Shown here one piece after another: positions 7,361-11,220 of a stretch of DNA of 64,000 bases. Location: the NCBI RefSeq assembly GCF_046105845.1, contig NZ_CP151004.1. The stretch is one strand, 5' to 3'. Under the pieces are notes generated by a model. It did no database searches, was not told the origin of the DNA, and was given only the letters and a program-made list of their open reading frames with translations. The stretch's first letter is position 1. The number at the start of each line of letters is the position of its first letter. The translations under genes were made by a program, and so were the position numbers. This DNA comes from Escherichia coli (GTDB taxonomy: Bacteria; Pseudomonadota; Gammaproteobacteria; Enterobacterales; Enterobacteriaceae).

Positions 7361-8404
7361 TTATCCACGTAGTGTAGCCGCAAAATCCAGCATACGATTG
7401 AGCGGCACCAGCGCCCTCTCTCGCAGCCTTTCATCAACATGAACCTCGTGATTGCTTCCTTCCTGTTCTAATGCCTCTGCGATGGCCTGAAGGCCATTCA
7501 TGGCCATCCACGGACAATGCGCGCAGCTGCGGCAGGTTGCACCCTCACCTGCGGTTGGTGCTTCCAGTAACTCTTTATCTGGCACCGCCTGCTGCATTTT
7601 GTAGAAAATACCCCGATCGGTTGCCACAATAAGCCTCTGATGTGGCAATGTTTTCGCAGCAGCGATCAGTTGACTGGTGGAACCGACCGCATCCGCCATC
7701 TCTACAATAGCTTGCGGTGATTCTGGATGCACCAGTATGGCAGCATCCGGGTATTCTTCTTGCAAGCGGGTTAACGCCTGAGTCTTAAATTCATCATGCA
7801 CAATGCAGGCACCCTGCCAGCATAAAATGTCTGCGCCCGTCTGTTTTTGCACGTAACGCCCCAGATGTTTGTCGGGTGCCCAGATGATTTTTTCACCCAA
7901 ACTATCCAGATGATCAATAAGTTCGACGGCAATGCTTGAAGTTACCACCCAATCTGCCCGCGCTTTTACCGCAGCAGAAGTGTTGGCGTAGACGACGACA
8001 GTATGATCGGGATGGGCATCGCAAAATGCGTTAAATTCTTCAACAGGGCAGCCGAGATCCAGTGAACATTCAGCCTGAAGTGTCGGCATCAGAATTGTTT
8101 TTTCCGAACTGAGAATTTTGGCGGTTTCTCCCATAAATCTCACCCCAGCGACTAACAACGTAGAAGCGGGATGCTTTGCACCGAAGCGCGCCATTTCCAG
8201 AGAATCAGAAATACAGCCACCGGTTTCTTCTGCCAGTTGTTGAATTTCGGGATCGGTATAGTAATGGGCAACCATCACCGCATTACGTTCTTTTAACAGA
8301 CGTTTTATCTTCTCGCGGTAATACGCTTTTTCATCAATGCTTAACGGCGTCGGCTTCGGGGGGAAAGGATAAATCGCCGTGTCTGGATCAAACATCACGC
8401 TCAT
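7361..8404 (-). CDS. nadA: quinolinate synthase A
   Basis: 347 aa, matches E. coli NadA ([22 protein letters not shown]...). Confidence 0.97.
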
Positions 8405-8495: not shown

Positions 8496-8620
8496 GATAG
8501 TCGAATGGTGGGGAAAAGTCACTCGAATTACGCCTAATTCCACCGACGTAGAGTTGCTTGCAAAGTAAGCTCTGAAGATGTCATCAGGTTACAAAGTGAA
8601 ATTGAGGATGCCTGAATAGC

Positions 8621-8647
8621 AAAAAAGCGCCTTTAGGGCGCTTTTTT
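8621..8647 (-). terminator. rho-independent terminator, distal copy of a duplicated module
   Basis: Minus strand reads aaaaaagcgccctaaaggcgctttttt: GC hairpin plus T-run; identical copy at 8777-8803. Confidence 0.6.
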
Positions 8648-8776
8648 ACATTGGTGGGTCGTGCAGGATGACTCGCTTCGCTCGCCCTACGGGCCGTCGC
8701 CGCGAGCGGCTCCGTTATTTCGCTGCGCTCAACTCGAACCTGCTGCAGGTTCGAATCTTTGAGTATCGCAGATAGC

Positions 8777-8803
8777 AAAAAAGCGCCTTTAGGGCGCTTT
8801 TTT
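8777..8803 (-). terminator. rho-independent terminator immediately 3' of lysQ
   Basis: Same hairpin plus T-run as 8621-8647, directly downstream of the last tRNA-Lys. Confidence 0.65.
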
Positions 8804-8807
8804 ACAT

Positions 8808-8883
8808 TGGTGGGTCGTGCAGGATTCGAACCTGCGACCAATTGATTAAAAGTCAACTGCTCTACCAACTGAGCTAACGACCC
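8808..8883 (-). tRNA. lysQ: tRNA-Lys (anticodon UUU)
   Basis: Minus-strand sequence is the canonical E. coli tRNA-Lys GGGTCGTTAGCTCAGTTGGTAGAGCAGTTGACTTTTAATCAATTGGTCGCAGGTTCGAATCCTGCACGACCCACCA, including CCA. Confidence 0.97.
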
Positions 8884-8916
8884 CTTGCGGGATTATGCTG
8901 CTTTAATCATTCAGGA

Positions 8917-8992
8917 TGGTGGGTCGTGCAGGATTCGAACCTGCGACCAATTGATTAAAAGTCAACTGCTCTACCAACTGAGCTAACGACCC
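8917..8992 (-). tRNA. lysZ: tRNA-Lys (anticodon UUU)
   Basis: Identical 76-nt tRNA-Lys copy. Confidence 0.97.
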
Positions 8993-9040
8993 ATACGGGT
9001 GTTACCTGAAAGATTTCTACTCGGAACCAATCTTTAAAAT

Positions 9041-9110
9041 TGGTGGGTCGTGCAGGATGACTCGCTTCGCTCGCCCTACGAGCCGTTGCTGACGCAACGT
9101 TATCCTTCAC
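9041..9110 (-). repeat. spacer repeat containing an 18-nt tRNA-Lys 3'-end fragment
   Basis: tggtgggtcgtgcaggat (3' end of tRNA-Lys) followed by gactcgcttcgctcgccctacg...cgttgctgacgcaacgttatccttcacg; a near-identical unit recurs at 9534-9607 and a diverged one at 8652-8760. Confidence 0.6.
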
Positions 9111-9138
9111 GCTTAACATCTGAGTTTGATGTTAAAAT

Positions 9139-9214
9139 TGGTGGGTCGTGCAGGATTCGAACCTGCGACCAATTGATTAAAAGTCAACTGCTCTACCAAC
9201 TGAGCTAACGACCC
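9139..9214 (-). tRNA. lysY: tRNA-Lys (anticodon UUU)
   Basis: Identical 76-nt tRNA-Lys copy. Confidence 0.97.
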
Positions 9215-9217
9215 GAG

Positions 9218-9293
9218 TGGTGGGTGATGACGGGATCGAACCGCCGACCCCCTCCTTGTAAGGGAGGTGCTCTCCCAGCTGAGCTAATCACCC
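9218..9293 (-). tRNA. valZ: tRNA-Val (anticodon UAC)
   Basis: Minus-strand sequence GGGTGATTAGCTCAGCTGGGAGAGCACCTCCCTTACAAGGAGGGGGTCGGCGGTTCGATCCCGTCATCACCCACCA, canonical tRNA-Val(UAC). Confidence 0.97.
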
Positions 9294-9344
9294 GATACTG
9301 CGCTGGATACTACAAACTACTTCCACCGAACCCACCGTAATTAG

Positions 9345-9420
9345 TGGTGGGTCGTGCAGGATTCGAACCTGCGACCAATTGATTAAAAGTCAACTGCTCT
9401 ACCAACTGAGCTAACGACCC
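9345..9420 (-). tRNA. lysW: tRNA-Lys (anticodon UUU)
   Basis: Identical 76-nt tRNA-Lys copy. Confidence 0.97.
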
Positions 9421-9422
9421 GG

Positions 9423-9498
9423 TGGTGGGTGATGACGGGATCGAACCGCCGACCCCCTCCTTGTAAGGGAGGTGCTCTCCCAGCTGAGCTAATCACCC
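9423..9498 (-). tRNA. valT: tRNA-Val (anticodon UAC)
   Basis: Identical tRNA-Val(UAC) copy, 2 nt after lysW. Confidence 0.97.
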
Positions 9499-9533
9499 GA
9501 TACTACGCTGGATACTACAACTAACTAGGTTAG

Positions 9534-9607
9534 TGGTGGGTCGTGCAGGATGACTCGACTTCGTCTCGCCCTTCGGGCCGTTGCTGACGCAACGTTATCC
9601 TTCACGT
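9534..9607 (-). repeat. spacer repeat containing an 18-nt tRNA-Lys 3'-end fragment (second copy)
   Basis: Same truncated tRNA 3' end plus shared spacer sequence as 9041-9110. Confidence 0.6.
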
Positions 9608-9633
9608 TTTACTACCGCTTCCACCTTAGCGAT

Positions 9634-9709
9634 TGGTGGGTCGTGCAGGATTCGAACCTGCGACCAATTGATTAAAAGTCAACTGCTCTACCAACTGAGC
9701 TAACGACCC
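9634..9709 (-). tRNA. lysT: tRNA-Lys (anticodon UUU), first gene of the operon
   Basis: Identical 76-nt tRNA-Lys copy; promoter-proximal position in the minus-strand operon. Confidence 0.97.
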
Positions 9710-9873
9710 ACTTTTTCGTTGCTTTCGGTTTGTTTGATATCCCGTGGCAACGGCGGCATATATTACTGATTTCAGACTTGAGCGCAACAAAAATTTCGAT
9801 GTAGATCACTCAACTGCTTATGATTCGCACGACACGACCAGAAATAATGCGACTTCTGGTCGTGTGTTATGCA

Positions 9874-10665
9874 TTACATCGCGTTAAGACGTTTTTGTGC
9901 CTGTTTAGCGCCATCAGTACCAGGGTATTTACTGATAACCTGCTGGTATACGGCTTTCGCTTTTGCGGTGTCACCTTTGTCCTGCATGATGACACCGACT
10001 TTAAACATCGCATCTGCAGCCTTTGGCGACTTCGGATAGTTTTTTACTACCGAAGCAAAATAGTACGCCGCATCATCTTTTTTACCCTTGTTGTAGTTTA
10101 ACTGACCCAGCCAATAATTGGCGTTTGGCAGGTAAGTTGAATCAGGGTAATTTTTGATGAAATTCTGAAATGCCACCATTGCGTCATCCTGGCGGGATTT
10201 ATCCTGCACCAGCGCAATTGCTGCATTGTAATCCGTGTTTGCATCACCGCTTTTCACCGGCGCGCCAGCATTCGCAGTACCAGCATCAGCTGTCGGCGTC
10301 GTTGATGCCGCCGCACCGCTTTGATCGCCGCTGGTTGATTGCGCCGCTGCACCACCGCTGCTGAGGCTATCGATCTGCAACAGGATCTGCTTTTGCCGCT
10401 CCACGACCTGATTCAGTTGATACTGATTTTCCTGAATCTGACCACGCAGGGAATCAATATCGGATTGATTATCAGAGAGTTGTTGCTGGAGTTGGGTTAA
10501 AAGCTGGCTGTGAGCATTTGAAATACGCTCAAGTTGAGTGACGCGGTCTTCGACCGAGCCTGAGCCGACACTACTGATTGGTGCCTGAGCAAAAGCGGCC
10601 CAGGGGGCCGCTATACCAACCAGTAACGACAGACTCAATAGTTGATGTCTGAAGTTACTGCTCAT
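9874..10665 (-). CDS. cpoB: cell division coordinator CpoB (YbgF), TPR protein of the Tol-Pal cluster
   Basis: 263 aa, signal peptide, coiled-coil then TPR repeats; matches E. coli CpoB. Confidence 0.95.
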   Translation of the reverse strand: MSSNFRHQLLSLSLLVGIAAPWAAFAQAPISSVGSGSVEDRVTQLERISNAHSQLLTQLQQQLSDNQSDIDSLRGQIQENQYQLNQVVERQKQILLQIDSLSSGGAAAQSTSGDQSGAAASTTPTADAGTANAGAPVKSGDANTDYNAAIALVQDKSRQDDAMVAFQNFIKNYPDSTYLPNANYWLGQLNYNKGKKDDAAYYFASVVKNYPKSPKAADAMFKVGVIMQDKGDTAKAKAVYQQVISKYPGTDGAKQAQKRLNAM

Positions 10666-10674
10666 GCAATTCTC

Positions 10675-11220
<546 letters not shown>

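Follow-up and report, generated by a model that had tools for sequence, protein, structure and literature searches.

The window, a stretch of 64,000 nucleotides of Escherichia coli DNA, carries the lysT operon on its minus strand. Seven tRNA genes were called there in agreement by ARAGORN and the Rfam tRNA model, and within this operon the tRNA-Lys genes (5/5) and the tRNA-Val genes (2/2) were identical to one another. The coordinates of these genes and of the other features discussed below are collected in Table 1.

Table 1. Features of the lysT operon region in the order of transcription; positions are those of the window.
Feature	Position	Strand	Evidence
lysT, tRNA-Lys(UUU), first gene of the operon	9634-9709	-	ARAGORN; Rfam tRNA 79.2 bits
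TLR 1, short form, between lysT and valT	9534-9633	-	Rfam RtT 60.6 bits; exact 18-mer
Spacer of 35 nt from TLR 1 to valT; directly 3' of lysT in strains without TLR 1	9499-9533	-	
valT, tRNA-Val(UAC)	9423-9498	-	ARAGORN and Rfam tRNA model
lysW, tRNA-Lys(UUU)	9345-9420	-	ARAGORN and Rfam tRNA model
Empty TLR site, the 51-nt lysW-valZ spacer	9294-9344	-	Comparison with K-12
valZ, tRNA-Val(UAC)	9218-9293	-	ARAGORN and Rfam tRNA model
lysY, tRNA-Lys(UUU)	9139-9214	-	ARAGORN and Rfam tRNA model
TLR 2, short form, between lysY and lysZ	9041-9138	-	Rfam RtT 51.4 bits; exact 18-mer
lysZ, tRNA-Lys(UUU)	8917-8992	-	ARAGORN and Rfam tRNA model
Empty TLR site, the 33-nt lysZ-lysQ spacer; a 99-nt TLR there in K-12	8884-8916	-	
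lysQ, tRNA-Lys(UUU), last gene of the operon	8808-8883	-	ARAGORN and Rfam tRNA model
94-aa open reading frame, TTG start	8584-8868	-	Open reading frame list
T1, intrinsic terminator hairpin, 4 nt 3' of lysQ	8777-8803	-	Identical to T2; -19.1 kcal/mol
TLR 3, long form, between T1 and T2	8652-8776	-	Rfam RtT 47.8 bits
T2, intrinsic terminator hairpin, 4 nt 3' of TLR 3	8621-8647	-	Identical to T1; -19.1 kcal/mol

Three repeat modules, designated TLR 1 to TLR 3, were found 0-4 nt downstream of a tRNA-Lys gene, with T1 also intervening in the case of TLR 3. At the end of each module, the terminal 18 nt of the tRNA (T-loop through CCA) are repeated without a mismatch. This 18-mer, ATCCTGCACGACCCACCA on the minus strand, occurred eight times in the 64-kb window, all of them exact, and no occurrence was expected by chance (100 dinucleotide-preserving shuffles). 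Five of the eight copies were the 3' ends of the tRNA-Lys genes, and the other three were orphans located at 9551-9534, 9058-9041 and 8669-8652. In TLR 1, a 26-nt linker is followed by a structured core (9606-9534) that ends in the orphan tRNA-Lys end; the core of TLR 2 (9111-9041) ends in the same manner, and the spacer sequence beside these two orphans (9070-9117 and 9565-9612) was 92% identical. TLR 3 aligned with both of them over the core, and it contains a palindrome that is followed by a 66-nt core and then by the orphan end. The palindrome, TCGAACCTGC-T-GCAGGTTCGA at 8734-8754, has the 5' half of the tRNA-Lys T-arm as its second arm (GCAGGTTCGA). The long form corresponds to the 3' portion of tRNA-Lys, from the 5' strand of the T-stem through CCA, with the core interrupting it in the T-loop; only this form retains a further 10 nt of the T-arm.

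The terminal part of the operon is arranged as T1 (8803-8777), TLR (8776-8652) and T2 (8647-8621). The 27-nt hairpin AAAAAAGCGCCCTAAAGGCGCTTTTTT is identical in T1 and T2, and each copy is part of a perfect direct repeat of 54 nt (8616-8669 = 8772-8825) whose period is 156 bp. A pattern-based terminator scan listed neither T1 nor T2, possibly because the flanking A/T runs extend the stem and leave no T-tail; the hairpins were therefore folded directly. It had been proposed in an earlier note, made from the sequence alone, that the seven-tRNA array is intact, that three spacers carry orphan tRNA-Lys ends followed by common spacer sequence, that the diverged copy contains a palindrome and that the terminator is duplicated, and all of these observations were reproduced. 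The further statement that each terminator adjoins the same tRNA-end fragment held in part, since the fragment at 8652-8669 is indeed an orphan, whereas that at 8808-8825 belongs to lysQ itself as its genuine 3' end.

The core of the modules comprises approximately 55 nt: a hairpin ACGUUGC-loop-GCAACG, then GCCCGAAGGGC, and finally a short variable hairpin within GAG...CGAGU. The predicted fold of TLR 1 has an outer stem CGUG.AGGAU/AUCCU.CACG around three hairpins (-28.5 kcal/mol, z = -3.6), and that of TLR 2 reached -27.0 kcal/mol (z = -2.5). In both of these internal copies, CGUGAAGGAU just 5' of the core can pair, according to the predicted fold, with the copied tRNA end, which closes a compact multi-branch structure and leaves ACCCACCA single-stranded. 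This outer stem, CGUGAAGGAU/AUCCUGCACG, has one mismatch and lies beside the core, off the register of the Rfam RtT model. When 78 TLRs were aligned with MAFFT, RNAalifold recovered only invariant pairs; because the alignment misplaced the variable hairpin, it was examined sequence by sequence. It was present in 42 distinct versions, most of them self-complementary with differing stems, including GCC/GGC, CAU/AUG, UCAC/GUGA, GCGC/GCGC and CCAC/GUGG.

All three modules scored above the gathering threshold of 45 bits for RtT (RF00391). The match of TLR 1 (9534-9702) takes in the lysT body via a 44-nt insertion, and the match of TLR 2 (9041-9207) takes in a tRNA-Lys body in the same way. The match of TLR 3 covers the full 130-position model, with most of the outer-stem pairs flagged as non-canonical. 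The Rfam fit is therefore imperfect, with tRNA-body borrowing in two of the three matches and a broken outer stem in TLR 3, although the core homology is clear. A lack of core similarity to the tyrT and other TLRs was looked for as evidence against this identity, and similarity was present: the core aligned with the four modules of the K-12 tyrT locus, and the last 18-19 nt followed the cognate tRNA (Lys or Tyr). [quoted passage not shown] This family has been documented from 1978 onwards (Egan & Landy 1978; Rudd 1999; both as cited in PMC8144298), with 22 members at ten loci in K-12 and one to five members per locus (PMC8144298). In addition, PGAP labels the orthologous terminal copy 'RtT sRNA' in the RefSeq strains N3, ECO_1_S, S10 and others. 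It may be concluded, with a probability of roughly 95%, that the three modules are tRNA-linked repeats, equivalent to Rfam RtT. That the window represents one allele of a locus with zero to at least six such repeats across E. coli is also very probable. The repeats at the lysT operon are thus already known; the family is of textbook age, its presence at this locus has been described, and annotation pipelines label it.

The closest known counterpart is the set of lysT TLRs in K-12 (Rudd 1999, per PMC8144298), which share with the window the locus, the positions after tRNA-Lys genes, the core, the 18-nt end and the terminator-TLR-terminator ending, apart from isolated point differences such as GGCUCGUAGGGC in copy 2. 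K-12 has five TLRs in this operon, one after every tRNA-Lys gene, whereas the window has three, after lysT, lysY and lysQ only (occupancy 1,0,1,0,1). At the empty site after lysW, K-12 carries a 98-nt TLR inserted exactly between the 3' end of lysW and the lysW-valZ spacer. The duplicated terminator with one TLR between its copies is also present in K-12 MG1655, and the same cassette lies 3' of lysV, another K-12 locus; the K-12 terminator 3' of lysQ was reported to be identical to that 3' of lysV (PMC4176162).

E. coli strains differed from one another in the number of TLR copies. In the decoded operons, each of the five TLR sites was independently full or empty, with junctions exact at the 18-nt repeat, and 16 architectures were distinguished among 18 operons. 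A flank-anchored query was used for the frequencies, as whole-operon BLAST coverage was confused by the internal repeats; 59 genomes were usable, and they fell into at least 16 length classes. When genomes of equal span were taken as sharing the architecture of the decoded representative, 11 of the 59 (approximately one fifth) belonged to classes whose representative had no TLR. TLR-free operons are common, so the lysT-operon copies are, on this genomic evidence, dispensable. A junction probe for lysQ, the terminator and the nadA flank, which detects operons without a terminal TLR, matched in 2910 of 5426 genomes; about half of E. coli genomes therefore have no terminal copy. E. coli carried zero, one or two tandem 156-bp units at this locus, and the other genera sampled had up to three. 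Two terminal units were certain only in single examples (ECO_1_S and H53); the count obtained with a two-unit probe (2463) was unusable, since one-unit K-12-like genomes gave 99% coverage when pieces of internal TLRs were joined to the lysQ-T1-TLR piece.

The distribution of the core in other species was studied in a sample of at least 120 loci. Across many genera, the same core was found 3' of tRNA-Tyr, Lys, Arg(ACG), Pro and Ser, in each case ending in the last 18-19 nt of the local tRNA, and a further class of modules ended in the 3' end of 5S rRNA. The terminator-TLR-terminator cassette 3' of tRNA-Lys was detected in Citrobacter, Pseudocitrobacter, Leclercia, Klebsiella and Pantoea. Orthologous TLRs occur in lysT-type operons of Citrobacter, Pseudocitrobacter and Enterobacter, and therefore their presence predates E. 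coli. Separately, matches in GC-rich metagenome-assembled genomes of Myxococcales, Chloroflexi and Acidobacteria lay inside coding DNA and looked like chance.

The 178-bp repeats of tyrT/tyrV and the rtT RNA (rttR, RF00391) were reportedly described by Egan and Landy in 1978 and by Bosl and Kersten in 1991. Like the lysT TLRs, these repeats have the homologous core, tandem units and, at the end, the last 18-19 nt of the cognate tRNA, which is tRNA-Tyr there and tRNA-Lys here. Their long form resembles TLR 3 in having an inverted T-arm half and then a T-arm half before the core. However, they possess a well-formed outer stem, GGGGAAGGAU/AUCCUUCCCC, that is absent in the lysQ-distal copy, and no intrinsic terminator separates their units, unlike the lysQ-distal units. 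Among the differences is also the processed RNA of 171 nt that has been shown for tyrT.

The probable fate of the TLR transcripts can be deduced from experiments in K-12, where the primary lysT transcript is approximately 1100 nt long and probes for the spacers gave few species in the wild type and revealed them almost exclusively when RNase P or RNase E was mutated (PMC4176162). By extension, TLR 1 and TLR 2 would be transcribed within a precursor of about 1.1 kb; RNase P would cut at the 5' end of each tRNA, so that the TLR would stay attached to tRNA-Lys as a 3' trailer, and RNase E together with 3' exonucleases would strip this trailer without its accumulation. T1 probably ends most transcripts, and TLR 3, by analogy with the rrnB T1-rrB-T2 arrangement, would be transcribed only upon polymerase read-through of T1; its copied 3' end may guide RNase E to cut just downstream. 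We lean towards regarding the TLRs of this operon as largely neutral passengers that are processed and degraded.

Conservation of the core across genera, together with compensatory changes in the variable hairpin, is at odds with a neutral passenger and argues for selection, as far as sequence comparison can indicate. The repeats may instead be functional small RNAs or processing elements, which we consider possible, though the less likely of the two. Two versions can be envisaged: a decoy or guide 3' end recruiting RNase E or RNase P, or a regulator freed from the precursor, as is the case for RrA/B/F of the rrn operons or the 3'ETS-leuZ sponge. In addition to the conserved core, the stable predicted folds favor a function, as does the agreement of the layout at the lysQ end with that of RrA, RrB and RrF. 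The latter, encoded in rrnA, rrnB and rrnD, are TLR members located, as TLR 3, between T1 and T2. They likewise finish with 18 nt copied from the 3' end of the stable RNA upstream, which is 5S rRNA for them and tRNA-Lys for TLR 3 (PMC8144298). They are expressed via T1 read-through and bind Hfq and CsrA in vitro, and for RrB a role of the repeated 3' end in directing cleavage by RNase E was proposed (PMC8144298). However, RrA/B/F contain several GGA motifs, whereas the lysQ-distal TLR has a single one and so differs from the multiple-GGA type, and the predicted CsrA-binding score was below 0.01 for the 19 TLRs of tRNA operons (PMC8144298). Functional RNAs from tRNA spacers such as 3'ETS-leuZ resemble the TLRs in being excised from a tRNA operon precursor, but 3'ETS-leuZ, for which the sponge function was demonstrated, has neither a TLR core nor a copied tRNA end. 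The frequency of TLR-free operons (11/59 by length class), the absence of the terminal copy from about half of the genomes and the scarcity of spacer species in wild-type K-12 also speak against a function, and the phenotype originally claimed for rtT has since been retracted (PMC8144298).

With regard to origin, the TLR core may be, or may once have been, an element actively installing itself in the T-loops of stable-RNA genes, or template switching or gene conversion may have carried it there. This proposal, which we regard as improbable, arises from two observations: the Lys and Tyr long forms both represent the 3' portion of the cognate tRNA split between GGTTCGA and ATCC, and the core, which lies 3' of 5S rRNA and of at least five tRNA species, invariably ends in the local 3' end. 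In a functional variant of it, the copied end may form part of an acceptor-like stem from which the ACCA tail protrudes unpaired, and may thereby serve as a decoy for RNase E, RNase P or an exonuclease acting on tRNA-Lys precursors. If this variant were true, the full/empty polymorphism would tune tRNA-Lys supply between E. coli lineages.

The earlier note had interpreted the modules as strain-specific footprints of recombination or slippage, consisting of truncated tRNA-Lys remnants and a local duplication of the terminator. The direct repeats are indeed exact, the copy number changes in steps of whole units whose junctions fall at the 18-nt repeat, and the number of 156-bp tandem units varies as well. 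Such a full/empty pattern with exact junctions is what recombination or slippage between repeats would produce: the 18-nt direct repeats, the identical tRNA-Lys genes and the 156-bp unit would allow whole units to be precisely gained or lost, generating many lysT-operon alleles. Nevertheless, a conserved non-tRNA core that spans about 55 nt, has homologs in the tyrT repeats, is common to the modules of other tRNAs and 5S rRNA and scores above the RtT threshold is not truncated-tRNA debris. Nor is the architecture specific to this strain, as K-12 MG1655 shows this arrangement with a higher copy number, the terminal cassette recurs at lysV and in other genera, and orthologous TLRs are found in lysT-type operons outside E. 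coli. Cross-locus and cross-genus conservation thus refutes this explanation for the origin, for which we hold it to be quite improbable on the sequence comparisons made, and it survives as a mechanism of copy-number change. No module was called as a tRNA or pseudo-tRNA by either program: ARAGORN found the seven tRNAs only, and there was no extra Rfam tRNA match at E <= 1.

It is very improbable that the TLRs are relics of integrated mobile elements with the tRNA-end pairs as former attL and attR sites. [quoted passage not shown] The duplicated segment here starts in the T-loop, between GGTTCGA and ATCC, and runs to CCA; the long form also resembles a tRNA 3' portion split in the T-loop by an insert. 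However, the insert is only 66-107 nt long and encodes nothing, the same structured core occurs 3' of five different tRNAs and 5S rRNA, and a single operon may hold up to five modules. The intervals between the duplicated tRNA ends measure 80-107 nt and have no credible open reading frame, and the whole region between cpoB and nadA was found to carry neither an integrase nor any other mobile-element open reading frame.

Finally, there is practically no chance that the region 8584-8868 encodes a 94-aa protein: although the frame is open, it begins with TTG, overlaps the 3' part of lysQ and both terminators as well as TLR 3, contains the peptide HPARPTNVKKRPKGAFLL twice because it spans both terminators and the repeat, so that the repetition merely mirrors that of the DNA, matches no Pfam family above threshold and lacks an annotation in all 16 RefSeq operons compared, in agreement with the view of the earlier note that it is spurious.

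The locus can serve as a calibration point: where orphan tRNA 3' ends lie near tRNA genes of enterobacteria, a comparison with TLR/RtT should come first, ahead of any reading as recombination scars or phage att sites. In E. coli, the five TLR sites of the lysT operon behave as independent presence/absence markers, and the occurrence of a TLR-free operon in approximately one fifth of genomes bounds any essential role of these repeats.

[quoted passage not shown] The final 18 nt of tRNA-Lys, ATCCTGCACGACCCACCA, occurred in eight exact copies in the 64-kb window, where none was expected by chance; five of these were genuine tRNA 3' ends and three were orphans, every one of which closed the 3' end of a module beginning directly after a tRNA-Lys gene. 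The hairpin reported as a duplicated terminator was indeed present in two identical copies, T1 and T2 (fold energy, -19.1 kcal/mol), within a perfect 54-nt repeat with a period of 156 bp. The 94-aa open frame, which had been considered spurious, was also recovered, and a Pfam search of it gave no family above threshold. Therefore, the observation was right in nearly every detail. Its interpretation as the footprint of recombination or slippage was partly supported.

Features of the lysT operon region in the window
Feature	Coordinates	Strand	Remark
cpoB	9874-10665		neighbour of the tRNA operon, which lies between cpoB and nadA
nadA	7361-8404		neighbour of the tRNA operon
Orphan tRNA-Lys 18-mers	9551-9534, 9058-9041, 8669-8652		exact matches
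27-nt hairpins T1 and T2	8803-8777, 8647-8621		identical copies, A and T runs alongside
94-aa open frame	8584-8868	minus	spans lysQ, both hairpins and the repeat
Rfam RtT matches, internal modules	9534-9702, 9041-9207		take in most of the preceding tRNA-Lys gene
Palindrome of the module after lysQ	8734-8754		T-arm 5' half copied twice, once inverted and once direct
28 nt missing relative to K-12 and strain A3	~8528-8539		between T2 and nadA
CpoB/ybgF intercistronic thermometer (Rfam RF02782)	10636-10774	minus	142 bits; pal-cpoB junction, upstream of the operon

The three modules scored 60.6, 51.4 and 47.8 bits with the Rfam RtT model (RF00391; curated threshold, 45), and the copy after lysQ is labelled "RtT sRNA" by NCBI PGAP in RefSeq E. 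coli genomes. When K-12 modules, five from the lysT operon and four from tyrT-tyrV, were aligned with those of the window, the common core was ...AACGUUGC-loop-GCAACG-GCCCGAAGGGC-GAG-(short hairpin)-CGAGU(C/A). Because the final 18-19 nt follow the upstream tRNA (Lys at the lysT locus, Tyr at the tyrT-tyrV locus), the modules match the definition of tRNA-linked repeats (TLRs). TLRs were first described in 1978 by Egan and Landy, and the catalogue of Rudd (1999) contained 22 copies at ten K-12 loci, one to five at each; a phenotype earlier claimed for the tyrT product rtT has since been retracted (PMC8144298). The feature is one of many natural copy-number alleles of a known family at a known locus.

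The homologous element in the internal copies is only ~73 nt long, and the Rfam coordinates overstate it because, by way of a 44-nt insertion, the model draws in the body of the real tRNA-Lys. The PGAP labels are restricted to long terminal copies; therefore, short-form TLRs are unannotated in RefSeq. The K-12 CDS annotations ychS and tpr are still found within the tyrT TLRs or antisense to them (710-985 and 1088-1177 of the K-12 tyrT locus, L005) and resemble the 94-aa frame as the same kind of repeat-driven ORF.

The internal copies (copy 1 after lysT and copy 2 after lysY) have a short form, in which CGUGAAGGAU, immediately 5' of the core, can pair with the copied end AUCCUGCACG apart from a single mismatch. 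In the RNAfold predictions (-28.5 and -27.0 kcal/mol; z = -3.6 and -2.5), this outer stem encloses the core hairpins, and ACCCACCA stays single-stranded. This stem changes with tRNA identity, since Arg(ACG)- and Tyr-linked relatives carry their own matching upstream segments (CCAGGGAGGAU facing AUCCUCCCGG and GGGGAAGGAU facing AUCCUUCCCC, respectively). Copy 3, after lysQ, has a long form consisting of GCAGGUUCGA, a 66-nt core and AUCCUGCACGACCCACCA, that is, tRNA-Lys positions 49-76 with the core interrupting the T-loop. This layout recurs in the tyrT repeats with tRNA-Tyr sequence. When aligned to the Rfam model, the long form had most of its outer-stem pairs flagged as non-canonical. The third core hairpin varies in a compensatory manner. 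A terminal TLR variant shorter by 8 nt (T-99-e vs T-107-e) was found in strain 124, with a matching span in 3 of 59 sampled genomes.

The arrangement is not strain-specific: in the K-12 MG1655 lysT operon, a TLR lies behind every tRNA-Lys, five in total, and the terminator-TLR-terminator ending is the same. This cassette, nearly identical in sequence, also ends the K-12 valU-valX-valY-lysV operon, 1.7 Mb away (734-916 of K-12 segment 2520600-2522000, L006), and the identity of the lysV and lysQ terminators was already noted by Agrawal et al. (PMC4176162). TLRs were found after some tRNA-Lys genes in lysT-type operons of Citrobacter werkmanii, Pseudocitrobacter, Enterobacter cloacae, Phytobacter and Pluralibacter, and the cassette ends valU-type operons of Citrobacter, Pseudocitrobacter, Leclercia and Klebsiella; therefore, the elements predate E. 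coli. Tandem units reached three in Klebsiella and Pantoea.

A scan with a degenerate core in one genome per species gave at least 120 loci (L021-L140). Among the matches listed, cores were located behind tRNA-Tyr, Lys, Arg(ACG), Pro(UGG/CGG) and Ser(UGA) in Enterobacterales and some other Gammaproteobacteria, each ending, past ...GAGU(A/C), with the last 18-19 nt of the cognate tRNA. A further class among them, lying behind 5S rRNA, had the 5S rRNA 3' end, AACUGCCAGGCAU, as its terminus (AACTGCCAGGCAT at L029, L063, L065, L066, L102, L111 and L121), and corresponds to the RrA/B/F-type elements of PMC8144298. The listed matches also included a core just upstream of the 5S 5' end in Brenneria (L107) and extended past Enterobacterales, for example to Thioalkalivibrio.

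With the unique flanks alone as query, both were detected in 5407 of the 5426 complete E. coli genomes. Across 59 evenly sampled genomes, at least 16 length classes of the inter-flank interval were distinguished; when one representative of most classes was decoded together with the window and other references, 16 distinct architectures were found among 18 operons. With TLR presence coded in the order lysT, lysW, lysY, lysZ, lysQ, the window, strain N3 and, by span, SCU-102 were 1,0,1,0,1; K-12 was 1,1,1,1,1 (10/59 by span), strain S10 was 1,1,1,0,1 (11/59), strain BY63 was 1,0,1,1,0 (8/59), and strains A3, 8178 and SE15-type were 0,0,0,0,0 (11/59). ECO_1_S carried two terminal units, and O157-type and some other strains additionally lacked one tRNA-Lys gene or a Val-Lys pair. 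Approximately 277 genomes were collinear with the window across at least 80% of the operon. Of 5426 genomes, 2910 were matched by a lysQ-T-nadA junction probe lacking the terminal TLR, consistent with 30/59 in the sample.

At all empty sites, the tRNA-Lys end ran directly into the exact sequence that occupied alleles have behind their TLR: a spacer of 35, 51, 48 or 33 nt, or the terminator. Recombination or slippage among the 18-nt repeats, identical tRNA genes and 156-bp units would be expected to give this pattern; thus, the mechanism proposed earlier is right for copy-number change. Since outgroups carry TLRs at orthologous sites, the empty E. coli sites would most simply be losses.

Between T2 and nadA, the K-12 counterpart of the missing 28 nt has an 11-nt direct repeat, ATTAGGCGTAA, at its borders, and the window retains one copy of this repeat; the absent segment includes GCATCCTGCAC, similar to the beginning of the tRNA-Lys end. 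In strain N3 (L002), the RefSeq genome with the operon closest to that of the window, nadA is annotated as frameshifted; in the window, it is an intact 347-aa ORF.

The K-12 operon yields a single transcript of ~1100 nt (PMC4176162), a length consistent with transcripts ending at the first hairpin. RNase P takes off the terminator and then cleaves at every tRNA 5' end, leaving tRNA-Lys trailers of up to 150 nt that are removed by RNase E, RNase II, PNPase and RNase T, and spacer probes gave almost no signal in the wild type (PMC4176162). By extension from K-12, copies 1 and 2 would be transcribed and then discarded, and copy 3 would be produced only when T1 is read through. Copy 3 would thereby resemble rrB, another TLR-family element between a T1 and a T2, which is made by read-through of rrnB T1 (87% efficient) and whose copied 3' end was proposed to guide RNase E cleavage (PMC8144298). 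Because TLR-free operons are common, no TLR of the lysT operon is essential. Nevertheless, that the core is conserved and its third hairpin varies in a compensatory manner suggests some selection at the RNA or DNA level.
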